Origin: Deltaproteobacteria bacterium
Lineage (GTDB): Bacteria; Desulfobacterota; Desulfobaccia; Desulfobaccales; 0-14-0-80-60-11
DNA: 64,000 bases
Direction of reading: 5' to 3'
NCBI GenBank assembly: GCA_003599195.1
Contig: QZIZ01000075.1
Coordinates: 7,705-71,704, forward strand
This document shows positions 1,878 through 42,944 of this stretch, piece after piece. Position 1 is the stretch's first letter. The number at the start of each line of letters is the position of its first letter. The notes under the pieces are model-generated. The model saw only the letters and a program-made list of their open reading frames with translations, had not been told where the DNA came from and did not search any database. The translations under genes and the position numbers were made by a program.

Positions 1878-1955
1878 TTTTTTGGAATTTCAAGGACTTG
1901 GCTTATTTTTGCAGGTGTTGTTAATTTTTTGGTGTCCATATAGATGTCCACGCGC

Positions 1956-2303
1956 TCAGATTTTCCCCTGCACCAAAGTTTTGAGTTCCTCTTCGCTCAC
2001 CTTGTTTCGGCGTTTGCACATCTGCATGGTTCTGTGTCCCGTAGCCGCCATTATACGAAAGTAATCCTGCCCCTGCAATCGCCAGTTTTGAAACTCCTTG
2101 AATCTGTCTCAATGGAAGTCAACAGTATCCTTTTCCTTGGCAAAAGTGGCGGATTGCCGCAAACCACAGCATTGGAAGCCCGCCTGAAGCATTTCAAAAA
2201 AAAGCTCAGTCTTAAAGATTTCAGGGTGAACTTCCACCCACGTCCCGCATTTCCCGCATTTCGCCAGATACTTATCATCTTCGGTGATCCTGGTGAGAGT
2301 CAT
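1956..2303 (-). pseudogene. Decayed tyrosine-recombinase (integrase) remnant
   Basis: One minus frame reads ...LFFEMLQAGFQCCGLRQSATFAKEKDTVDFH*DRFKEFQNWRLQGQDYFRIMAATGHRTMQMCKRRNKVSEEELKTLVQGKI. The GLR (box I-like), H-x-x-R and GH-T--M--R[Y]N-VSEEEL patterns are integrase-like. There is an in-frame TGA at 2109-2111, the box I to box II distance is far too short, and the expected catalytic Tyr is Arg. Confidence 0.5.
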
Positions 2304-2390
2304 GGTCCGTCCATGGGCTTCTGAGTTGCCGCCAAGAGGGTTGCCGGCGGCGGGCCGGCTGCTGGAGCATTCGCGTCAGGAAGTTCCGCT

Positions 2391-2978
2391 TTAATAAACG
2401 CGCCGAGGCACACCGGCAGATATGGGCTGCCTGGCCGGATAGCCCGCTACTCCCTGGCCCGTATCCAGCCGGAATTTCACCCAAGCTACCAGAACGGCAA
2501 ACAGCCCGGCCCACACCCGGGTATGGCCGTGGCCGGTATGAATATGGGCCAATTCATGGCAGAGGGTGGTCAGGCGGCATCCGGGGGGGTAAAAGCGGAC
2601 GGACTTTTGTCCATGGTCCGCTTCCGCCATTAACACTGAAGACTTTAGCCGGAAAACCGCTGGATCGTCAGAGATCTCCAGCGGGACCGGAGAAAAGCCG
2701 AAGGCCGCGCAAATCAGCCGGCTCCAGGACTCGATCTCCTTAAACTCCCGGGGCCGGATCAATTCCCGGTCATAAGCATGACACTTGTCGCACCATACCG
2801 GGCCGTCAAATACCAGGTTACCGTGATCCCCGGGGTCCAGGACGGCGCGGCATCGGGGACACTCCAGGAACAGGCCTGCCGATTCACTGGCGGCTTGGAC
2901 CACTTCGCTTCTTTTCTCCCCAACATCCGGCTCATCCATGAGGCGGCCCCCAAAGGAGGTACTCCACCGGATAGTCAA
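2391..2978 (-). CDS. SprT-like zinc metalloprotease with N-terminal zinc ribbon
   Basis: HEXXH motif in LCHELAHIHTGHGHTRVW. Upstream CPRC...CDKC zinc-ribbon pattern. Confidence 0.55.
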   Translation of the reverse strand: MTIRWSTSFGGRLMDEPDVGEKRSEVVQAASESAGLFLECPRCRAVLDPGDHGNLVFDGPVWCDKCHAYDRELIRPREFKEIESWSRLICAAFGFSPVPLEISDDPAVFRLKSSVLMAEADHGQKSVRFYPPGCRLTTLCHELAHIHTGHGHTRVWAGLFAVLVAWVKFRLDTGQGVAGYPARQPISAGVPRRVY

Positions 2979-2996
2979 GATTTACGAAAACGGTCC

Positions 2997-3356
2997 TCAA
3001 AAATTTCCCAGGGAACATGACCCTTCGTCGCCTTCGTAGACGGGCTTGCCCTCAAAATTAATTTTTTCCCCGGATCCGTCCAGGGTCAGGATTTCAAAGG
3101 CCTCATCCCAGTTACCCCACCTCGTATTCTCTCCGAAGGAAATGGCCCCCCGCCCCAGATTGTGACATACAACAATGGCACCCGCATCTCCCGAAGGCGT
3201 CCGGAAAAGGTAACTGGAAACGACGGCTTCTCCTTCTTGGGCGATGGTTCTTTCAATGACTTCAATGGCCGTCTTTGCCGTTATGCCCATGGCCGCGGCT
3301 TCCGGACGCCAACTATCCGGAGTCAGAAGCCGCTTTTCCCAATAATGCAACAGCAT
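2997..3356 (-). CDS. Hypothetical protein, co-oriented with and 18 nt upstream of the SprT-like gene
   Basis: Open frame with plausible composition. No recognised motif. Confidence 0.35.
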   Translation of the reverse strand: MLLHYWEKRLLTPDSWRPEAAAMGITAKTAIEVIERTIAQEGEAVVSSYLFRTPSGDAGAIVVCHNLGRGAISFGENTRWGNWDEAFEILTLDGSGEKINFEGKPVYEGDEGSCSLGNF

Positions 3357-5897: not shown

Positions 5898-6040
5898 ATG
5901 TAAAAGGAAAGGTCCAAATTTAAACATTACTATTTTGATTAGATTATTGGGGTTTTCCCAGGGCTCCCTTATAAGAAAGAGTCCGATTTTATACATTTAT
6001 TAATAATTTAATTAGCCAAAATCTTGCCATAAGTGCCAAG

Positions 6041-6068
6041 GGGCCGAATTTTCGGCCCTTTTTTATTT
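6041..6068 (+). terminator. Rho-independent terminator candidate downstream of the activator gene
   Basis: GGGCCG-aatttt-CGGCCC followed by TTTTTTATTTT. Confidence 0.55.
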
Positions 6069-6398
6069 TGGCAAAAAACTTGAATAAGATCATTCGTCAG
6101 CGCACCAGAGGTGGGGCCGCGGTGCGCGGTTAGCTTAAAATCTAAATTAGCTCAATGTATTAACCACTTCTGCAGGAAAGGGGGTGAAACTTCCTAAGAA
6201 GGAGGCACAAGGAATCCAAAGGCCGAGTCCTGTGCTTCCTTGCGTTTAAGGGCCTTTGTTTGTCGTGGTCATTTCTCCTAAGAGCAGCATTTCCCATCAG
6301 GAGGAACCTTGGTATTCAAATCCCTCAACTCTTAGTTCGTTTCCTTCAGGTCTGCAACAAAGGCTACTCCTATGACGCCAGATATGGGAGGTCAAAAG

Positions 6399-7892
6399 AT
6401 GGCGAAAGAAAAACGCGATATTGAAATCAACAGCCGGGCCGATACCCTGCCTTTGATGGGGCCGGAGGTCAGGCCCTGGCCGGTCACTCCACCCCCTACA
6501 CCCGAATGGGTCATGGACAATGTCTATGCCAAGCGCAAAGCGCAGGAATTCGGTAAATTCCTGGAAGACAACCTGAGACTGGATTTTGTTTTCGATAAAC
6601 CGGAAGCCCTCCAGGGCCTCCGGGTAATGTGCAACGGCATCTGGCAGATCAGCAGAATGTTTGCCGCCAGCCTGCTGGGGGAACAGGGCGCGGAAGTGGT
6701 TCATATTGAGCCGCCCGGGGGCGACCCCCTGCGCCAACTCACCCCCTTCGGCCGGGAAGAGTACATGCTCATGGATAACGTCGCCGGCGAACCCTGCGGC
6801 CTGGATTTTCTCCACGAGTTCCGCAACGCCAAATCCATCACCTTGAACCTGGAGACCGAAGACGGGCGGGCCATTTACAAAAAGATGGCTACGGTCTTTG
6901 ACGTCATCATCGAGGCCTGGCCCCCGGGATATATGGATTCCGTAGGGTTAGGCTACCGGCACCTGTCCAAGCTCAACCCCCGGCTGATCTACTGTTGGGT
7001 GGGGGAGCGGGGCCAATGGGGTCCCATGAAGGACGAGGTCTCCAAGCATGGCCAATGGATTCTGGACCCCTTCTCCGCGGCGGCTGACTCCTGGATCCAC
7101 AACACCGGTTTCCCCCAGGATCAGTGCCCCCGCGGCAAGGGCGGCGACCCCATGCGCTCCGGCGCCTGGCTGCCCTCCTACGTCTGCGGCGAGCAGGCCG
7201 CGGTCAATATCCAGGCCGCGCTCTACTGGCGGGACGGGGTGAGCGGCGAAGGCCAGTTCATCGAGGTCACCGCCGCCGAAGCTCTGATGGACATCCTGGA
7301 CTTCGACATCGGCTGGTACGGCTTCAACCGGTCCATTAAGGCCCGCACCGGCGCCTGGGACCCCAACCTCAACCAGTACGAGTGGAACCCCTGCAAAGAC
7401 GGCTATATGATGATCGGCGGCCAGACCGACCGTCTCTGGTACCGTATCGGCATGTGCATCGAGCGGGAGCTCCCCGAGTTCGGCCGGCTGATCCATGAAG
7501 ACCCGCTGCTCAAAGAGATGGGGGCCCGCAACTCGCTCCAGGGCCTGATCAAGACCTATTCCATCACCACCAAGTGGCTCCGGGACATCAACCGTATCGA
7601 GGCCGAGCAGAAGCTGATGGAGTATGAAATCGCTGCGGGTCCGGTTCTATACATCGATGAAGTGGCGGAATTCCCCCACTTCAAGTACCGCCCCTGGGTC
7701 AACACCATCGAGACCCAGTTCTACGGCACGGTGATGTATTCTGAATCCTGCGCCGCGTTCCAGCACCGCACTCCGGCCCGAGTCAAGGATATTGGCCGGC
7801 CCCTGGGGCATGACAACGGCGAAGTCTACCAGAAATTCCTGGGCATCGGCCCCTTGAAACTCCGGGAACTTAAGGCGAAGGGGGTTATCTAA
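6399..7892 (+). CDS. Family III CoA-transferase (CaiB/BaiF-like), unusually long paralog 1
   Basis: [45 protein letters not shown] matches the family III N-terminal signature (G-RV-D...GA-V-VE-P-GD--R). The ATG at 6399 follows GGGAGG. Confidence 0.85.
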
Positions 7893-24812: not shown

Positions 24813-24818
24813 TTTCAT

Positions 24819-24975
24819 CTGGTTCCCAAGCTGCGCTTGGGAACCCACTTGGCTGCGAAGCTTTGCTTCGCCGGTTATGTATTGGGTAAATTGTCTATGG
24901 TGCTTGTAACTAGCCCGGCCAAGCAGAGCTTGGCCTCCAAGTGCGTTCCCAAGCGGAGCTTGGGAACGAGAAGAG
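24819..24975. mobile_element. MITE-like element, copy 1 (terminal inverted hairpins GGTTCCCAAGC...GCTTGGGAACC)
   Basis: Left end CTGGTTCCCAAGCTGCGCTTGGGAACCCACTTGGCTGCGAAGCTTTGCTTCGC. Right end CCAAGCAGAGCTTGGCCTCCAAGTGCGTTCCCAAGCGGAGCTTGGGAACGAG. Second copy at 36989-37132. Confidence 0.8.
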
Positions 24976-24993
24976 ACGGTGCCATGCTGACAG

Positions 24994-34834: not shown

Positions 34835-35017
34835 TTTCTCTGCGCCCTCTGCGTCTCTGTGGTTATTATTTTTTACCGCAGAGACGCAGAGAACGCAGAG
34901 GAAATTTATGGGCAATAAAATATGACGCTCTAGATAAAAGTTAAGGGGTACGGCTGAAGCTGCACCCCTTAAAATTTCTCGCGCCTTTCTTTGCGTCTCT
35001 GCGCCTTTGCGAGAAAC
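34835..35017. repeat. Composite of one full RCARAG palindrome, a second copy of the TTAAGGGGT...ACCCCTTAA hairpin and a single arm
   Basis: 34835-34903 TCTCTGCGCCCTCTGCGTCTCTGTGG...CCGCAGAGACGCAGAGAACGCAGAGG. Hairpin at 34941-34974. Arm at 34976-35017. Confidence 0.85.
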
Positions 35018-35024
35018 ACCTTTT

Positions 35025-36872
35025 CTAAAAAATCGCCCGCGCCAATTCCCACACCTTGGGCGACCGCCATACCTGGGACTTGAACAGTTCCCGGAGGTAG
35101 ATAAACTCCTTCGGAAGCCGGTCGAAAAAATTATCGAACAACTCCTCGTGGGATCTGGCCTCCTTTACTGCTTCCTGCCGGTCCACGGACATGAGTTCAT
35201 AGAATTTATCCGGATCGTATACCAAACCTTCCCAGTGGATATCCTGATGCCGGGGCATGAACCCCATGGGGCTTTCCACGCCGTACCCCCGGCCCCGCAC
35301 CCGGTCCACCACCCATTTGAGCACCCGCATGTTTTCGCCGAACCCGGGCCACATGAACTTGCCGTTCTCATCCTTCCTGAACCAATTCACCCGGAAAATG
35401 CGCGGGGGATTGGCCAGATGCCGCCCCACGTTCAGCCAGTGGTTCCAGTAATCGGCCATATTGTAGCCGCAAAAAGGCAGCATGGCCATGGGGTCCCGCC
35501 GCACGGACAACCCTGCCTCCGCCGCGGCCGTGGCTTCGGAAGCCATGGTCGCGGCCAGGTACACGCCGTGGGACCAGTTGAAGCCCTGAAAGACCAGGGG
35601 CACGTGTTTGCTCATCCGGGCTCCGAAGATAAAGGCCCTGATGGGAACGCCCTCGGGATTGTCCCATTCCGGATCGAACGTCGGACATTGTTGGATGGGC
35701 GCGGTGAACCGCGAATTTGGGTGAGCCGCCAGGCGGCCGCAGTCCGGCGTCCAATCCTGGCCTTGCCAATCGAGCAGATGCGCCGGGGGGTCGTCGGTCA
35801 TCCCCTCCCACCAGACATCACCGTCATCCGTGAGCGCCACATTGGTAAAAATGCAGTTTTTGGTCAAGGTCATCATGGCATTGAGGTTGGATTTCGTGGA
35901 AGTGCCCGGCGCCACCCCGAAAAAACCGGCCTCGGGATTAATGGCCCTGAGGTTACCTTCCTCATCCGGTTTTATCCAGGCAATGTCGTCGCCCACCGTG
36001 AACACCTTCCAGCCTTCAAACCCCTTGGGAGGCACCAACATGGCAAAATTGGTCTTGCCGCAGGCGCTGGGGAAGGCCCCGGCCACATAGGTGCGCTCGC
36101 CCTCGGGATTTTCCACTCCCAAAATCAGCATGTGCTCGGCCAGCCAGCCCTCATCCTCGGCCATAACCGAGGCAATCCGCAGAGCGAAGCATTTTTTGCT
36201 CAACAGGGCATTGCCTCCGTAGCCGCTGCCGAAGGAATAAACGGCCCGTTCCTCCGGAAAGTGGGTGATATAGAGATTTTCTGGATTACAGGGCCAGGGG
36301 ACGTCTTTTTCCCCCGGGGCCAGGGGTGCGCCCACCGAATGCAGGCACTTGACGAAGTGGCCGTCGTCGCCCATAACATCCAGCACCGCCTGGCCCATAC
36401 GGGTCATGATCCGCATATTCACCGCCACATATGCGGAATCCGAGATCTCCACGCCGATATGGGCAATGTGGGAACCCAAAGGCCCCATGCTGAAAGGAAT
36501 GACGTACATGGTGCGCCCGCGCATGCAGCCGTCAAACAGGTGCGTCAATTTTGCTTCCATGTCTGCCGGGTTAATCCAGTTGTTCGTAGGGCCGGCATCG
36601 GCTTTATTGAGAGAGCAGATAAAGGTGCGGCTTTCCGTACGCGCCACGTCCCTGGGGTCGGAGCGGCTTAAGAAACTGTTGGGGCGTTTTTCTTGATTCA
36701 ACCGGATAAAAGTCCCGCTTGCCACCAAATCGTCGCAAAGGCTCCGGTATTCTCCATCGGAACCGTCGCAAATATAGATCCGTTCCGGTTTAGTGAGGCC
36801 GGCTACCATATTAATCCAACTGAGGAGGGAACTGTTGTTGGTCTTCGCGCCGGTTATTTCCAGACCTTGCAT
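35025..36872 (-). CDS. pckG: Phosphoenolpyruvate carboxykinase (GTP)
   Basis: [15 protein letters not shown] kinase-1a motif and full-length GTP-PEPCK similarity by eye. The ATG at 36872 follows AGGAGG; the track start at 36920 is likely too early. Confidence 0.95.
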
Positions 36873-36988
36873 GGACAACCTCCTAAAACCGCGGTCGATA
36901 TGGGGCAGGATTAGATACATTTTTAAAATAAATTTGCGTGTTCTTTTATAGCCTCTCTCAGATTCTTTCTATATCTCTGGTTATATCT

Positions 36989-37132
36989 CTGGTTCCCAAG
37001 CTCCGCTTGAGAACCCACTTGGATGCGAAGCTCTGCTTCGCTTCCCCGGCGGTAATTATTCGGCTACCGCCTAAAAACCAAGCAGAGCTTGGCTGACAAG
37101 TGCGTTCCCAAGCAGAGCTTGGGAACGAGGAG
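36989..37132. mobile_element. MITE-like element, copy 2 (same termini as 24819-24975, different core)
   Basis: CTGGTTCCCAAGCTCCGCTTGAGAACCCACTTGGATGCGAAGCTCTGCTTCGC ... CCAAGCAGAGCTTGGCTGACAAGTGCGTTCCCAAGCAGAGCTTGGGAACGAG. Confidence 0.8.
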
Positions 37133-37148
37133 AGATGGGCCGGGAGGT

Positions 37149-38384
37149 TTAACCTGCTTTTTGCTCTTCTGACACCTTGATGAACTTCTTCCTGAATTTA
37201 TGCTCCACTTCCATATCCGGCGCGCCCAACCCCGCGGCCAGCAAGTATTTATTGACAAAAATCCGGTTTTTTAAATACACGTAAGCCGGAATGGCCTCCC
37301 CCTGCCTCGGCGCCCCGTCCGGAATCTTGCATATTATACTTTTCCCCAGGATTTTGTCAGTTAAATAAGCTATGGCCTTATCTTTTTCTGTGATGCGGAC
37401 GCCGAGAAATTTTATGCTTTGGCCGGTGTCGATCTTCAGGGTGTCCGGGGCAACTATGGCCACTACCTTGTGGAGGACCGGGCCGGACTCCGCCTCCCCC
37501 AGGGGCCGGGCGTCGGGCAGGTGGGGTTGGTAGGATGGTAGGGGCAGGCGGGGCGTTTTTTTTCGGGAAGTAATGGTGATTTCAGGATAAATCGGCAGCC
37601 GGTCCTTCAGCCCCAGCTTTTCTTGGATAAGGCTGAGGAAATCTTCGTGAATCTCATAGCCCACCCCGTTCCGCCCCAACTCCAGGGCCGTCTTCACGGT
37701 GGTGCCGCTCCCCAGGAAGGGGTCCAACACCGTATCCCCCACAAAAGTGAACATGCGGATGAGGCGCCGGGGCAGCTCCTCCGGGAACATGGCTTCATGC
37801 CCCACCTGCTTGGCTCCCCCGAATCGCCAATGGCCGGAGTAATACTCCTTCCACTCCTCTTTGGTCAATTTTGAGGCTTCTTTGATTTCTTTAGCTACCG
37901 CCCTCCCCTTCCCCGGTTTCTTAAAAATCAAAATGAATTCGTAATCGATCTCCACCAGGCCGTTGGGGGGATAAGGATAGGAGCCCATGACCACCGCGCC
38001 GCCGCTGGGGTTCATGGTGGTCTTCTTCTGCCAGATGACGGCCCCCAGGAAGTCGAAGCCGATCTGCTCACATTGGGAGATGAACTCCGCGTGCAGGGGA
38101 ATTACTTTGTAGCGGCCGTAAATGCTGGAGCGGGCGAACTGGTCGCCGATGTTGATGCACAACCGGCTGCCTTCCCGCAATACCCGGAAGCATTCGGTCC
38201 AGGTGCGGTATAGGTCAATCAAATATTCATGCAGGCTCTGCCCGTAGCCGATCTGCCCGGTGACGCCATAATCTTTAATATGCCAGTAGGGAGGCGAAGT
38301 GACTACTAAATCGACGCTTTGGTCATCCAGCTCCACCATGGAGCGGCTGTCTGCAAAAATTATTTTGGCCCAGTTATCCATCAT
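37149..38384 (-). CDS. Beta-class N4/N6 DNA methyltransferase (SPPY type) with C-terminal degenerate SNase/OB-like domain
   Basis: Motif IV VVTSPPYW precedes motif I VLDPFLGSGTT (beta permutation). The C-terminal 120 aa (HKVVAIVAPDTLKIDTGQSIKFLGVRITEKDK...AYVYLKNRIFVNKYLLAAGLG) follows thermonuclease topology but lacks its catalytic Arg/Glu/Asp pattern. Confidence 0.8.
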   Translation of the reverse strand: MMDNWAKIIFADSRSMVELDDQSVDLVVTSPPYWHIKDYGVTGQIGYGQSLHEYLIDLYRTWTECFRVLREGSRLCINIGDQFARSSIYGRYKVIPLHAEFISQCEQIGFDFLGAVIWQKKTTMNPSGGAVVMGSYPYPPNGLVEIDYEFILIFKKPGKGRAVAKEIKEASKLTKEEWKEYYSGHWRFGGAKQVGHEAMFPEELPRRLIRMFTFVGDTVLDPFLGSGTTVKTALELGRNGVGYEIHEDFLSLIQEKLGLKDRLPIYPEITITSRKKTPRLPLPSYQPHLPDARPLGEAESGPVLHKVVAIVAPDTLKIDTGQSIKFLGVRITEKDKAIAYLTDKILGKSIICKIPDGAPRQGEAIPAYVYLKNRIFVNKYLLAAGLGAPDMEVEHKFRKKFIKVSEEQKAG

Positions 38385-38428
38385 AAGAACTTTTATAATA
38401 ACGAGTTGTAGTCATAAATGCATGTAAT

Positions 38429-38489
38429 GTAGGGGCGAACCTTGTGTTCGCCCTGTAACGTCCGGGGCGAACACAAGGTTCGCCCCTAC
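38429..38489. repeat. Perfect 25-bp inverted repeat with nested hairpins
   Basis: GTAGGGGCGAACCTTGTGTTCGCCC-tgtaacgtcc-GGGGCGAACACAAGGTTCGCCCCTAC. Each arm is itself a hairpin (GGGCGAAC...GTTCGCCC). Confidence 0.9.
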
Positions 38490-38518
38490 GAAAAATATCC
38501 TTTTGGCGGATAATTGGC

Positions 38519-38737
38519 TTAAGTTCTTAACCGCCGAAGATCTATCGCTTTATTCAGCAGCGCGGCTGCCAATAGTTCCAACTCATCCGGGTTTCCCGTT
38601 ATGTGCAGGGATTTTGTGGCTGGATGATCTTGTCTTACAAGAAGTTCGTGTGATTTTCGGAGTTCGTTGAGTTCATTAATGCTTAGATCAATTGGGTGGT
38701 TTCCATGGCTTGAGCCATATTTAATTTCAATTCGCAT
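38519..38737 (-). CDS. Hypothetical small protein (72 aa)
   Basis: ORF between ruvA and the methyltransferase. No motif, weak RBS. Confidence 0.3.
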   Translation of the reverse strand: MRIEIKYGSSHGNHPIDLSINELNELRKSHELLVRQDHPATKSLHITGNPDELELLAAALLNKAIDLRRLRT

Positions 38738-38778
38738 AAAAACCCCCACGTTTAAAGAATTAAAGATACCGATATGGG

Positions 38779-38841
38779 CCACTGATCACTGATCACTGAT
38801 TACTGATTACTGATCACTGGCCCCTGACCCCTGGCCACTCT
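38779..38841. repeat. Heptamer tandem array (9 units, YCACTGA type) abutting the ruvA stop codon
   Basis: CCACTGA TCACTGA TCACTGA TTACTGA TTACTGA TCACTGG CCCCTGA CCCCTGG CCACTCT. Confidence 0.9.
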
Positions 38842-39423
38842 TCACTTCGCCAGCCACTTCAAACCCTGGCGCAGAAAATCCTCCACCGTGGCCGCGCCCT
38901 GGGTCCGCGCCATATCCAGGGCCTTTTCCGCCACGTTTTTGGGGTAGCCGAGATTAAGGAGGGCGGACAGCGCGTCCTGGTAGGGCCGGTCGCCGGGAAC
39001 TCCGGGCCGGGGTCTCGCGGAGATGATCACCTTGCCTTTCAGCTCGAGCAGGATGCGGTCCGCAGACTTCTTGCCGATGCCGGGAATCCCCGCCAGCCGC
39101 CGGGAGTCGTTTAACGACAGGGCCTCTTCGAATTCCTGGGGGGAAATGCCGCTGAGGATTTTTAGGGCCATGCTTGGGCCGATGCGGGGGATGTCCAAGA
39201 GCTTCAGGAAGGTGTCTTTTTCTTCATGGGTGATGAAGCCATACAGGTTGAGCGCGTCGTCCTGAATCCGGGTATGAATCTGCAAACTCACCGGGGCCGG
39301 GGGCTCGGGCATGGCATAAAAAGTGGACAAGGGGATCAGCACCAGGTAGCCTACCCCCCCCACCTTGACAATGGCCTGGCCCGTGCTCTTGTCCAGGAGT
39401 TCGCCTTCTAGAAAGCCAATCAT
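38842..39423 (-). CDS. ruvA: Holliday junction DNA helicase subunit RuvA
   Basis: MIGFLEGEL...VGGVGYLV...LLDIPRIGPSMALKILS...IPGIGKKSADRILLELK (OB domain plus two HhH motifs). Confidence 0.92.
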   Translation of the reverse strand: MIGFLEGELLDKSTGQAIVKVGGVGYLVLIPLSTFYAMPEPPAPVSLQIHTRIQDDALNLYGFITHEEKDTFLKLLDIPRIGPSMALKILSGISPQEFEEALSLNDSRRLAGIPGIGKKSADRILLELKGKVIISARPRPGVPGDRPYQDALSALLNLGYPKNVAEKALDMARTQGAATVEDFLRQGLKWLAK

Positions 39424-39586: not shown

Positions 39587-40390
39587 TCACGACCCGACTT
39601 CTCTATACAGGCCCGCCGCCATCTTTAGGTGTTGCCACAGTTGTGGCAACTCACGGGGACGTAGACATAAAGCTCCAAGACGACCATCCGGACCAGGTGC
39701 CAGTGAACAAATATTGTCCGACTTAAGATGACTTGATACGCAGAACAGCACCGCGATTCTACCGAGCTGAAACTGATAGGTGCAATGTCCTTCGTATTTG
39801 AACTTGAAGGGGGCTGCGACGCCACCGTGCCCGGATTGCATGACAGGACATAGCCAGAGCGGGTATTCGTACCTGGCACCTGGATTGCCACTAAGCAGCA
39901 TTGCGCGAAGACGTTCCTCGTGTTGTCCAAGCCTAACCTGCCAAAACTCGGGAAGCGTCGAAACGCTGCTTCGCCAAAGGATGGAAATCAGGAACAGTTT
40001 GAACTTATCGTAGTCGAAGCCCCTAAAACGAAGGAGCTTCATTTTTAATCCCAACGGCCCTCCCTCGACCATACTCATTGACATGCTTGGGGGTGGACAA
40101 CTTCTAAAGGACGTGATAGTTCGCCAGTATGATAGTGAAGGTTGCTCGTATCTGGTGTTTAGCAGTTCTTCGCATTCTGCGCACAGTAACTTCTCCCGTA
40201 GTCCCTTCTGGAGGTACCTCCTCTTGATCTCGCCATTTTTAAATAGAAACCCGACCATCCGTCGTCTTGCAGAGTAGAGCGGCTTGTAGATGAACTCCGG
40301 TATGACGTGCGAATCGCAGAGACGATCCTCGCGACCACACAGGGCGCATTGGGTTCGCTGGTCGGGCGACATGTCACTACTCCTTAACAT
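39587..40390 (-). CDS. Uncharacterised Cys-motif protein inserted between ruvC and ruvA (HNH-like CxxCG-x7-SHVIP start)
   Basis: QCALCGREDRLCDSHVIPEFIYKPLY ... LLCAECEELLN ... FLISILWRSS. The resemblance to HNH zinc-finger nucleases is partial and the spacing is atypical. Confidence 0.5.
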   Translation of the reverse strand: MLRSSDMSPDQRTQCALCGREDRLCDSHVIPEFIYKPLYSARRRMVGFLFKNGEIKRRYLQKGLREKLLCAECEELLNTRYEQPSLSYWRTITSFRSCPPPSMSMSMVEGGPLGLKMKLLRFRGFDYDKFKLFLISILWRSSVSTLPEFWQVRLGQHEERLRAMLLSGNPGARYEYPLWLCPVMQSGHGGVAAPFKFKYEGHCTYQFQLGRIAVLFCVSSHLKSDNICSLAPGPDGRLGALCLRPRELPQLWQHLKMAAGLYREVGS

Positions 40391-40498: not shown

Positions 40499-40792
40499 TC
40501 AGGGAATTACATTTCCCCATTTAGACCCGCACTTCCGGCACTCCCAGCGCTTGCTGTCCCGGGCAACTTCGCAGCCGCCGAGTTCCACTCTGCCGCTGTC
40601 GATGGCGCGATGCAGTTCTTCATCCAATATCGGCTCGCCGTAGAGGATATAGACCACCCGGTCCGAGTTGCACCTGGGGCAGGTAACCGGCGCGTCCCAG
40701 GGACGAGGGTCTCTTGTTTGGGCTGACGCCAGCAGAGGGAGCAGGAAAAGACCTACCCAAATAACCGCAATAAGGAATTTAAGACGAACCAT
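40499..40792 (-). CDS. Small secreted zinc-ribbon protein
   Basis: MVRLKFLIAVIWVGLFLLPLLASAQ signal peptide; CPRC...CRKC. The track start at 40858 would overlap ruvC and the heptamer array. Confidence 0.45.
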   Translation of the reverse strand: MVRLKFLIAVIWVGLFLLPLLASAQTRDPRPWDAPVTCPRCNSDRVVYILYGEPILDEELHRAIDSGRVELGGCEVARDSKRWECRKCGSKWGNVIP

Positions 40793-40810
40793 TGCCTGTC
40801 CTGTAGTCTT

Positions 40811-40845
40811 ACCGAAGACCGTAGACCGCAGACCGAAGACCGTCA
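40811..40845. repeat. Heptamer tandem array (ACCGNAG, 5 units) abutting the ruvC stop codon
   Basis: ACCGAAG ACCGTAG ACCGCAG ACCGAAG ACCGTCA. Confidence 0.9.
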
Positions 40846-41325
40846 TTACCGCGGCCATTTGCTGTGAAACAGGTGGCAGATCCCCACCGCCAGGGCGTCA
40901 GCCGCGTGTTCGTTGGTGATTTTCAGGCCCAGCAGGTGTTCGATCATCAACTGCACCTGGGCCTTGGTGGCCTGGCCGTAGCCAACCACCGCCTTTTTCA
41001 CGGTGGTGGCGGAATACTGGAAGACGGGGAGGGAGGATTGGGCCGCGGCCAGGAGCACCACCCCCTGGACCTGCCCGAGGACGAAGGCGCTGCGCACGTT
41101 GCTGGCCAAAAAGATTTCCTCCAGGGCCAGGGCCTGGGGCTGGTGCTGTTGGATCAAGTCCGTCAAGCTGTCATAGATTTGACGCAGGCGATTTTCCAGG
41201 GCCGGGCGAGACCCGGCATGGATGCGCCCGGAATCCAGGTGCAGGAGCTTCTCCCTTTCTTCCTGGATGACGCCGAACCCGGTGTCCCGGGAACCCGGGT
41301 CCACCCCCAGGATCACCTGGCTCAC
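40846..41325 (-). CDS. ruvC: Crossover junction endodeoxyribonuclease RuvC
   Basis: [17 protein letters not shown]-terminus and overall RuvC layout. The start overlaps the yebC stop (ATGA). Confidence 0.92.
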
Positions 41326-42071
41326 ATCAGGGCCTCCAGGAGGTTATCCGGGATATCGAAATTGGCGAAGACGTTGTTCACGTCGTCGTGATCTTCCAGC
41401 AATTCCACCAACTTCAACACCTGCTGCGCAGGCTTTTCCTCATCGATGCGCACCGTGGTTTTGGGGTGGAGCTGCAGTTCCGCCAGCGCGGGTTGAAAGC
41501 CTCTGGCCTCCAGGGCCTCTTTGACTTCCACAAAACTTACCGGGTCGGTGAGGACTTCAAACTGGGTCTCATCACTCTGCAGGTCTTCGGCGCCGCACTC
41601 CAAGGCGGCCTCCAGGAGTTCATCCTCCTTGACGCTCTCCCGGTCGAAGACGATGACCCCTTTTTTGTCGAACATCCAGGCCACGCAGCCGGGTTCCCCC
41701 AGGTTACCCCCGTACTTGGTGATCAGATGGCGCACGTCGGAGACGGTGCGGTTTTTGTTATCCGTGAGGCTCTCCACCATCAAGGCCACGCCTGCGGGGC
41801 CGTAGCCTTCCAGGATCAGCTCTTCCAGGGCCGCGCCGCCACCTTCGCCGGTGCCTTTACGGATGGCCTTCATCATATTGTCTTTGGGGAGGTTCTCGGC
41901 CTTGGCCGCGGCAATGGCAGCCCGGAGGCGGGGATTGCCCGAGGGGTCGCCGCCGCCTATGCGCGCGGCCACGGTTAGCTCCTTGGTGAGCTTGCCGAAG
42001 ACCTTCCCCCGCTTGGCGTCCAACGCCCCTTTTTTGCGCTTGATGGTGCTCCACTTGGAATGGCCGGACAT
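41322..42071 (-). CDS. yebC: YebC/PmpR family DNA-binding transcriptional regulator
   Basis: [28 protein letters not shown] is the canonical family N-terminus. Confidence 0.92.
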
Positions 42072-42095: not shown

Positions 42096-42218
42096 ACCAC
42101 AGAGGCACAGAGAGCACAGAGTTTCACAGAGAATTTGATAATTTCCTTTGACGCCAAGGCGTCAAAGGAAATTACAATTTACCTCTGTGAATCTCTGTGT
42201 CCTCTGTGTCTTTGTGGT
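42096..42218. repeat. RCARAG-arm palindromic element (ACAGAG variant) with central hairpin
   Basis: ACCACAGAGGCACAGAGAGCACAGAGTTTCACAGAG ... CTCTGTGAATCTCTGTGTCCTCTGTGTCTTTGTGGT. Core ATTTCCTTTGACGCC-aa-GGCGTCAAAGGAAAT (42141-42171). Confidence 0.9.
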
Positions 42219-42855
42219 GAATCTTTTTTTTATTCAACGCCAGCAGGTAAATCTCCTTGCTGGCCGCGCGGGAGCCCGGGGGCTTCACCCGGCGGCAGAC
42301 CTTAAAACCGGCCTCCAATTCCCGGACCAGGGCCCCCACTCCAGGCCCTTCGAAGACCTTCACCAGAAAAAATCCCCCGGGCCTGAGCACCCTTTTGGCC
42401 CACTCCCAGGCGGCCAGTGCCAGGTCCAGCGAGCGCTGCTGGTCTACCTCCCTGATGCCCGTGGTCCTGGGGGCCATGTCGCTGACCACTGCGTCAAAAA
42501 AATCACTGACCGCCCTGACGGCCTCCAGATCCAGGCCGCTCACGTCCCCGGGCACGAAGTATACGGGCGGCGCCACCTTAATGGCGGGCGGATTCACGTC
42601 CACCCCCACCACCAAACCGCCCGCGCCCACCCGGGAGGCCAGGTATTGCAGCCAGGAACCGGGAGAGCATCCCAGGTCCAACACCTTTTGTCCCGGCTGG
42701 AACAGGCGGTGTTTTTCGTCCAGCGCCTTTAATTTATATATGGCCCGGGCCACGTATCCTTCGGTCCGGGCTTGGTCGCGGTAGGGGTCGGGCACCCCGG
42801 GGCGGGGCATGATAAAGCGCCTATCTGGGTAAATTAACTGGATTTCTTTTACCAT
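42172..42855 (-). CDS. rlmE: 23S rRNA (uridine-2'-O)-methyltransferase RlmE/FtsJ; last about 16 codons and the stop lie inside the repeat element
   Basis: GYVARAIYKLKALDEKHRLFQPGQKVLDLGCSPGSWLQY (SAM motif I) and DVVVSDMAP. Start at 42855 (MVKEIQ) or 42807 (MPRPG). Confidence 0.85.
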   Translation of the reverse strand: MVKEIQLIYPDRRFIMPRPGVPDPYRDQARTEGYVARAIYKLKALDEKHRLFQPGQKVLDLGCSPGSWLQYLASRVGAGGLVVGVDVNPPAIKVAPPVYFVPGDVSGLDLEAVRAVSDFFDAVVSDMAPRTTGIREVDQQRSLDLALAAWEWAKRVLRPGGFFLVKVFEGPGVGALVRELEAGFKVCRRVKPPGSRAASKEIYLLALNKKKIHHKDTEDTEIHRGKL

Positions 42856-42881
42856 AGGAACCCGGTTTTGGCAATTAAAAA

Positions 42882-42944
42882 GCAGTAGCCAGTGGCCAGT
42901 AGCCAGTAGCCAGTAAACAGCAATCAATGATCAGTGATTAATCG
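42882..42944. repeat. Heptamer tandem array (CCAGTRG type, 9 units) upstream of rlmE
   Basis: GCAGTAG CCAGTGG CCAGTAG CCAGTAG CCAGTAA ACAGCAA TCAATGA TCAGTGA TTAATCG. This is the reverse complement of the CACTGGC family. Confidence 0.9.

Follow-up and report, generated by a model that had tools for sequence, protein, structure and literature searches.

The stretch of DNA analysed here comprises 64,000 nucleotides from a Deltaproteobacteria bacterium of the Desulfobaccales (GenBank assembly GCA_003599195.1, contig QZIZ01000075.1, positions 7,705 to 71,704 of the forward strand) and is referred to below as the window, with positions counted from its first nucleotide. Its reverse strand carries a complete gene for a DNA methyltransferase (MTase) that continues, beyond the catalytic domain, into a C-terminal domain resembling staphylococcal nuclease (SNase). 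The gene and its parts, with protein positions in amino acids (aa), are the following.

37149 to 38384, reverse strand: complete gene of the MTase–SNase-like fusion, 411 aa, from the list of open reading frames (ORFs), with the stop codon at 37149-37151.
37620 to 38315, reverse strand: beta-class N6/N4 amino-methyltransferase domain, aa 24-255, supported by PF01555, entry 2zie of the Protein Data Bank (PDB), M.MthZI and the ratio of nonsynonymous to synonymous substitution rates (dN/dS).
38283 to 38300, reverse strand: motif IV, TSPPYW, aa 29-34, catalytic and of the N4-cytosine type, read from the sequence.
37698 to 37724, reverse strand: motif I, DPFLGSGTT, aa 221-229, which binds S-adenosylmethionine (AdoMet), read from the sequence.
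37479 to 37619, reverse strand: linker, aa 256-302, rich in proline and basic residues, from alignments and low predicted local distance difference test (pLDDT) values.
37152 to 37478, reverse strand: predicted degenerate SNase-like domain with an oligonucleotide/oligosaccharide-binding (OB) fold, aa 303-411, from AlphaFold2 (AF2), Foldseek and PF00565 matches in homologues.

The beta-class catalytic core of this enzyme is intact. PF01555 (N6_N4_Mtase) matches aa 24-255 with 153.5 bits against a cut-off of 26.7 (E 1.1e-44, Pfam), and motif IV lies N-terminal to motif I, which is the circular permutation of the beta class. The first-pass annotation of this DNA, made from the sequence alone, had assigned the class from the order of the two motifs and had pointed to PF01555; the order and a match above the curated threshold both bear it out. 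In an alignment of 36 homologues, TSPPYW and DPFLGSGTT are invariant. The SPPY of motif IV, which had been read as the N4-cytosine type, is shared with the N4-methylcytosine (m4C) enzymes M.MthZI and HVO_0794 and, in the alignment, with N4CMT, and the closest characterised relative is the m4C enzyme M.MthZI, in agreement with that reading. Among solved structures, the putative methylase TTHA0409 of Thermus thermophilus HB8 is nearest in sequence (2zie; E 3e-54, aa 12-257); rotifer and bacterial N4-cytosine MTases, CcrM, M.RsrI and M.PvuII come next among the PDB matches. TTHA0409 is a dimeric beta-class MTase (PDB 2zie/2zif/2zig; PMC7544214). Its alignment with the window MTase extends over aa 12-257 and takes in the middle region, but, unlike the window MTase, it has 297 aa and no C-terminal SNase-like domain. 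The PADLOC model PDLC03259 for Type II MTases (423 positions) also matches (E 8e-125), the match being split over two stretches. In structural terms, the full-length AF2 model is poor for the MTase domain (mean pLDDT 65), and the linker of ~45 residues has low pLDDT and no secondary structure in the AF2 models; its positions Y285, P287 and D291 are nevertheless conserved in the alignments.

The window protein has a large family. At least 8000 homologues were found, the best 120 of which are full length (~394-463 aa) and 64-90% identical, and whose named sources are mostly Thermodesulfobacteriota, Desulfobaccales or ‘Deltaproteobacteria’ metagenome-assembled genomes (MAGs). A scan of one genome per species found the complete fusion (query ~1-408) in at least 576 species; at 44-63% identity its hosts include Archaeoglobi, Thermoplasmatota, Aquificota, Nitrospirota, Bacteroidota, Clostridia, Spirochaetota (Brachyspira pilosicoli included), Saccharibacteria and others. 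Among the matches from a plasmid collection, 0 of 350 cover 80% or more of the query, i.e., the collection yielded no full-length fusion. The genomic neighbourhood of the fusion was assessed for a restriction endonuclease (REase) in 78 loci outside the window's clade. Clustering of neighbouring ORFs places a gene of ~200-225 aa directly downstream of the fusion, on the same strand, in 51 loci, with a gap of 0-65 bp in the examples read off, and tblastn finds a homologue of this gene in 55 of the 78. The downstream gene encodes a member of PF09568 (RE_MjaI), with Pfam E-values of 1e-52 and 1e-68. MjaI and MthZI are the two characterised members of this REase family, and both cut CTAG. On the Methanothermobacter plasmid pFZ1, the gene for M.MthZI adjoins an annotated MjaI-family restriction endonuclease. 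Over the whole MTase domain (aa 2-258), M.MthZI itself shows 34% identity to the window MTase (E 7e-40), while its C-terminus has no similarity to the SNase-like domain.

The biochemistry of these relatives suggests what the window enzyme might do. M.MthZI is an experimentally characterised m4C CTAG enzyme, and REBASE lists M.MjaI and M.BfaI, too, as characterised enzymes of this specificity (PMC5867850). All three have the beta-class PF01555 domain and the SPPY motif IV of the window enzyme, and the pairing with a PF09568 REase is shared by the window subfamily; they differ from the window protein, with its 411 aa, in a length of only 303-364 aa (PMC5867850), and the window copy differs from MjaI-family restriction-modification (RM) systems in having no REase beside it. 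By its sequence relationships, the window protein is best placed in a large MjaI/MthZI-type subfamily of RM MTases that is marked by the SNase-like tail. Since this subfamily is paired with an MjaI-type REase directed at CTAG, the window copy would be a secondary orphan with a predictable target. The expected product would be m4C at CTAG, and the methylated base would be the outer C of the tetramer on both strands.

The domain that marks the subfamily is predicted to adopt the fold of staphylococcal nuclease. AF2 models aa 303-411 with pLDDT values of 88-95 in the full-length model and 80-86 in a domain-only model, in the topology b-b-b-(b)-a-b-b-a-b-a, and Foldseek matches the model to hundreds of PDB entries for staphylococcal nuclease (probability 1.00, E ~1e-5, template-modelling score (TM) 0.6-0.7), with ~119 aligned columns superposed at a root-mean-square deviation of ~2.5 Å. 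The top matches are loop-deleted Delta+PHS nuclease variants, which fits the absence of the omega loop from the tail. Moreover, seven homologues that are 64-67% identical to the window protein match PF00565 (SNase) at the equivalent position, with 25-29 bits against a gathering score of 21. Staphylococcal nuclease binds Ca2+ through D21, D40 and T41, and its catalytic residues are R35, E43 and R87. In the hhalign register, which agrees with the secondary-structure elements, R35 corresponds to L327, D40 to T332, T41 to E333 and R87 to A364, and E43 falls into the deleted loop; only D314, the equivalent of D21, is retained in the window protein, and this position varies across the family. Across 79 family members, the R35 column holds L/I, D40 K/D/I, R87 N/H/T and D21 E/N/D, and E43 is deleted, whereas G328, N373, F376 and N378 are invariant and look structural. 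Because an SNase fold is predicted and the catalytic and Ca2+-binding positions are missing, the tail would be an SNase-derived OB fold without catalytic machinery. Compared with staphylococcal nuclease (PF00565), it has the same OB-fold topology, b-b-b-a-b-b-a-a, at a TM of 0.6-0.7, but it lacks R35, E43 and R87, has T in place of D40, and belongs to a protein that stays below the Pfam threshold. The first-pass annotation had proposed a degenerate SNase-like C-terminus, and the fold found by AF2 and Foldseek, the PF00565 matches in homologues and the missing catalytic residues all agree with it.

The nuclease fold raises the question of whether the tail is an active nuclease and the protein a fused methylase-nuclease, as is also implied by the automatic name that the Joint Genome Institute (JGI) gives to one homologue, ‘DNA modification methylase/endonuclease YncB (thermonuclease family)’. 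However, the window protein and the 79 family members lack counterparts of R35, E43 and R87 and do not conserve those of D40 and D21, and a separate REase of the PD-(D/E)xK type normally accompanies the family, all of which makes nuclease activity of the tail highly improbable. The OB-fold tail might rather serve as an accessory, sequence-nonspecific DNA-binding module that is attached through a flexible basic linker, in analogy to the C-terminal domain of CcrM. CcrM likewise combines an N-terminal beta-class MTase with a C-terminal accessory DNA-binding domain and is a clade-conserved orphan (PMC6787082, PMC10406627). Unlike the window MTase, CcrM produces m6A at GANTC and has a DPPY motif, and its C-terminal domain does not have the SNase fold, so that the likeness would concern the mechanism only. 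The tail is also present in REase-linked relatives, so it would serve methylation in general and have no function specific to the orphan state.

For the likely target, the window itself and two cultured organisms provide indirect indications. CTAG is the most depleted of the 256 tetramers in the window, with 27 occurrences against 54 expected from a second-order model (ratio 0.50) and 243 expected from base composition alone, which fits a history of CTAG restriction. As a separate observation, CTAG does not occur at all in 34930-39408, the stretch that holds the MTase gene and its leader. Two cultured members of the Desulfobacterota, the phylum of the window host, possess a Type II m4C MTase that is described as ‘active’ on CtaG: M.Dac11109III (Desac_2401) of Desulfobacca acetoxidans DSM 11109 (54.6% of sites detected) and M.Dco13527I of Desulforegula conservatrix (74% of sites detected) (PMC4752239). 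No cognate REase is named for either of them in the S3/S4 tables of this single-molecule real-time (SMRT) sequencing study, which lists a CTAG m4C MTase of Caldithrix abyssi together with an REase (Blow et al., 2016; PMC4752239). The order named for many of the closest homologues of the window MTase includes D. acetoxidans, and in a Desulfobacca sp. MAG the gene for an MTase of 68% identity is followed by one for phosphoenolpyruvate carboxykinase (PEPCK), the neighbour that is also found in the window. Orthology of Desac_2401 and M.Dco13527I to the window gene is probable.

The chromosomal surroundings of the MTase gene are formed by housekeeping genes, all on the same strand.

42172 to 42927, reverse strand: rlmE, in the upstream gene cluster.
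41322 to 42071, reverse strand: yebC, in the upstream gene cluster.
40846 to 41325, reverse strand: ruvC, followed by two variable ORFs before ruvA.
38842 to 39423, reverse strand: ruvA, the conserved upstream neighbour of the MTase gene (tblastn and Pfam of related loci).
35025 to 36920, reverse strand: PEPCK gene, GTP type (PF00821), downstream of the MTase gene.

The order rlmE-yebC-ruvC-ruvA-MTase-PEPCK is found in nine related loci, whose MTases are 58-81% identical to that of the window and which differ only in small variable insertions (among them P0002 (81%), P0063 (66%), P0043, P0102, P0026, L016 (58%) and L004 (68%)). In 9 of 9, the MTase gene occupies the slot directly downstream of ruvA. 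Its divergence tracks that of its neighbours: in locus L001, identity to the window is 81% for the MTase and 85% for RuvA, and in L002 it is 66% and 69%, respectively. None of the nine orthologues has a PF09568 REase beside it in the 10-17 kb of context available for each. Within the window, tblastn with six MjaI-family REases gave nothing significant (best E 0.68); an REase match at 37084-37164, just downstream of the MTase stop codon, was dismissed as chance (E = 2.6), and it overlaps the repeat that lies there. The first-pass annotation had called the MTase an orphan and had regarded a linked restriction gene detected by homology as the finding that would speak against it; in the 64 kb of the window no MjaI-family REase was detected, and the housekeeping synteny of the nine loci adds to the orphan status. 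A neighbour-joining tree rooted on M.MthZI unites the seven clade sequences (the window, L001, L002, L004, L084, L086 and L088) in one REase-free group that is nested among REase-linked members. Both domains of the protein are under purifying selection, with dN/dS (Nei-Gojobori) of 0.08-0.11 for the MTase domain against five orthologues and of 0.26 for the SNase-like domain in the sole comparison with unsaturated dS.

Taken together, the odds are, in our estimate, roughly two in three that the window enzyme is an active type II beta-class m4C MTase of the MjaI/MthZI RM lineage, most probably directed at CTAG and domesticated as an orphan after loss of its REase. Several points count against this interpretation. 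CTAG is depleted in many bacteria, and its depletion here is no specific evidence. For the tail, PF00565 gives no match to the window protein even at E<=10, so that this part of the earlier suggestion held for the homologues and failed for the protein itself; the isolated C-terminal 148 aa, searched in Pfam at E<=10, yield no SNase and only a chance match to TMEM132, a profile of 20 C-terminal domains finds only chance matches among PDB sequences (E ~1), and the hhalign comparison with the Staphylococcus aureus nuclease is weak (E 0.004, probability 8.7%). The SNase assignment thus draws on homologues and on a predicted structure, and DNA binding by the tail is conjecture from the CcrM analogy. 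Specificity, in turn, is carried over from relatives with an identity of 63% at most (REase-linked) or 34% (characterised), and the orthology of Desac_2401 is only probable, a homology search with the Desulfobacca sp. protein and a literature search on neighbouring locus tags having failed to identify this gene. These distances, ~63% to the nearest REase-linked relatives and 34% to M.MthZI, and the only probable orthology of M.Dac11109III would also suit an orphan whose target-recognition region drifted to another specificity or base once restriction pressure had ended. Such a change appears unlikely, however: conservation within the clade is very strong over the MTase domain and extends to the stretch that separates motifs IV and I (~130 invariant positions, dN/dS ~0.1), the SPPY motif is retained, and both cultured Desulfobacterota that are listed with an orphan MTase of this kind produce m4C at CTAG.

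The orphan state itself is weighed against the extent of the DNA, because 64 kb of the genome were inspected and an unlinked REase may lie elsewhere. Split RM systems are known, and most members of the family are REase-linked, so the window MTase could supply the modification activity of an RM system that still works, its endonuclease being encoded at an unlinked site. Against this, the REase is the adjacent downstream gene in the 51 relatives located by ORF clustering, only a few bp away where the distance was read off, nine clade members have none over 10-17 kb of context, and REBASE holds no cognate REase for the CTAG MTases of the two cultured Desulfobacterota, whose genomes are sequenced. 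A separate endonuclease is therefore quite unlikely, clearly more so than a drift in specificity. If the enzyme is a domesticated orphan, its ancestral form would have been a two-gene RM unit, in which the gene of an MTase that already possessed the SNase-like tail was followed directly by the gene for an MjaI-family endonuclease. This unit would have been acquired once, and the endonuclease would have been lost in the ancestor of the Thermodesulfobacteriota (Desulfobaccales-like) clade. The MTase gene would then have become fixed downstream of ruvA and have been inherited vertically as a functional orphan, with its tail retained, under purifying selection.

The MTase gene is accompanied by two repeats, one beyond its stop codon and one before its start codon.

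36989 to 37129: intergenic repeat resembling a miniature inverted-repeat transposable element (MITE), with 55-nt arms, between the MTase stop codon and the start of the PEPCK gene.
38429 to 38489: perfect inverted repeat, 45 nt ahead of the MTase start codon, with 25-nt arms and an 11-nt loop.

Both had been noticed in the first-pass annotation, which described the gene as bracketed by them, and both are confirmed: the arms of the MITE-like element (36989-37043 and 37075-37129) are 82% complementary, and those of the palindrome (38429-38453 and 38465-38489) form a perfect 25-bp stem. The MITE-like element has a second copy in the window at ~24818-24976, recurs at the same site between the MTase and PEPCK genes in L001 and has copies in L084 and L085; it is a genome-wide intergenic repeat. 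The palindrome is built from a small hairpin unit, GGGCGAAC-N5-GTTCGCCC, that occurs once in each arm in opposite orientation; L088 has a single unit at the corresponding site upstream of its MTase gene, together with a 72-aa ORF. The 136-nt leader folds at -63.7 kcal/mol (z = -9.7), and the palindrome has no T-tract; a promoter and terminator scan of the region gave no signal beyond that of shuffled sequence. Repeats on both sides of the gene and the patchy spread of the wider family over bacteria and archaea could be taken to mean that the MTase is the recently acquired cargo of a small mobile element with these repeats as its boundaries. However, in nine relatives at 58-81% identity the gene lies at an unchanged place in the chromosome and diverges in step with RuvA, the MITE-like repeat is multi-copy, intergenic and also present in L001 and L084, and the two flanking repeats are unrelated to each other. 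Recent mobility is therefore highly improbable; a cassette bounded by the two repeats is rejected because of the synteny across related loci, and both repeats are ordinary intergenic repeats that give no sign of mobility of the MTase gene. The site that holds the MITE-like repeat in the window contains a toxin-antitoxin pair (Unstab_antitox/ParE_toxin), or the antitoxin alone, between the MTase and PEPCK genes in some relatives (L084, 6287-6798; L085, 2121-2333; L088, 5918-6130).

To our knowledge, very few m4C orphan methylases have a known physiology, the main examples being LomA and the haloarchaeal Zim. Like the window MTase, HVO_0794/Zim of Haloarchaea (364 aa) and LomA of pathogenic Leptospira are clade-conserved orphan CTAG m4C MTases of MthZI-like RM origin (PMC5867850, PMC7708080), but no SNase-like tail has been reported for them, and they belong to other lineages and lie in other genomic contexts. 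LomA regulates transcription (PMC7708080), and the window orphan may act in gene regulation as well, in protection against incoming CTAG RM systems, or in a function linked to the ruv genes. A tentative and rather doubtful extension would make it a clade-wide housekeeping epigenetic enzyme, expressed with the recombination-repair cluster yebC-ruvC-ruvA from the slot that ruvB usually occupies: its tail would act like the C-terminal domain of CcrM and hold the non-target strand, and m4C at the rare CTAG sites would mark the status of replication or repair, or control transcription. If true, this would be a Dam/CcrM-like system built on m4C in anaerobes.

Current understanding is not overturned by this locus, whose product largely conforms to what an established enzyme family would lead one to expect. 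Public resources (REBASE-derived data, JGI naming, PADLOC) already cover its class and probable target, its fused architecture and its orphan state in Desulfobacterota. A text search of the literature found no paper that discusses the fusion of an SNase domain with a methylase, and it appears that neither what the dead nuclease domain does nor the fixation of the gene beside ruvA across the clade has been studied so far. The locus is nonetheless a clean example of the domestication of an RM methyltransferase, which is REase-linked in dozens of phyla and fixed REase-free, under strong constraint, beside ruvA in one clade. A conserved orphan m4C MTase in Thermodesulfobacteriota resembling sulfate reducers would be a useful further system, and the dead SNase domain, which occurs in thousands of methylases, could account for the hold that some beta-class enzymes have on DNA.

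Three small or variable ORFs lie among the conserved genes.

38519 to 38737, reverse strand: 72-aa ORF between ruvA and the MTase gene, 87 aa as a mechanical ORF from a GTG start.
39587 to 40390, reverse strand: orf267, 267 aa, between ruvC and ruvA, with an N-terminal CxxC...C-D-S-H-V-I-P-E-F motif.
40499 to 40858, reverse strand: orf119, 119 aa, overlapping the end of ruvC, with a hydrophobic N-terminal segment and two CxxC pairs.

The first-pass annotation, whose span of 37149-38737 comprised the MTase gene and the 72-aa ORF, had found no adjacent endonuclease and only this ORF, which is what we find as well. The 72-aa ORF has 13 representative homologues, mostly of 66-77 aa, which match query positions 16-86; a copy that is 85% identical occupies the same position between ruvA and the MTase gene in L088, and the ORF is absent from L001, L002, L084 and L086. 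It probably represents a genuine small gene from a rare family and is no conserved partner of the MTase. Similar sequence is repeated 4-8 times in P0242 (1574 aa) and P0252 (1898 aa), which suggests a repeat module that can also stand alone as a mini-protein. For orf267, searches of Pfam, NCBIfam and PADLOC gave no match; its family consists of uncharacterised proteins of ~240 aa (149 matches) with a sporadic distribution. The slot of orf267 looks like an insertion hot spot, as it holds a gene with an LprI domain in L001 and small ORFs in L084 and L088 and is empty in L002 and L086. For orf119 there are only weak zinc-ribbon matches, and a 71%-identical copy is found at the same place in L088. 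Like orf267, orf119 and the 72-aa ORF are without an assignment. All three ORFs were considered as nuclease partners of the MTase and rejected, none of them being conserved with it across the clade.

Further observations concern the genes on both sides. The slot after ruvA is usually occupied by ruvB, which does not follow ruvA here and is not among the ten window ORFs that were scanned with Pfam for context. PEPCK is always found downstream of the MTase, as the GTP type (PF00821) in the window, L001, L004 and L086 and as the ATP type (PF01293) in L002, L016, L084 and L088; the switch between the two types is a non-homologous replacement at a fixed position. In Brachyspira pilosicoli (L077), the fusion and a convergent MjaI-family REase lie ~2.7 kb from yebC-ruvC (1943-3172 and 5917-7760), a proximity to ruv genes that may reflect coincidence or a common insertion preference. 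Finally, tandem heptamers (ACTGATC/ACTGATT) occur just past the ruvA stop codon at 38781-38829, and a stretch of 55 nt near the start of rlmE (42884-42938) resembles the heptamers on the ruvA side with 80% identity.

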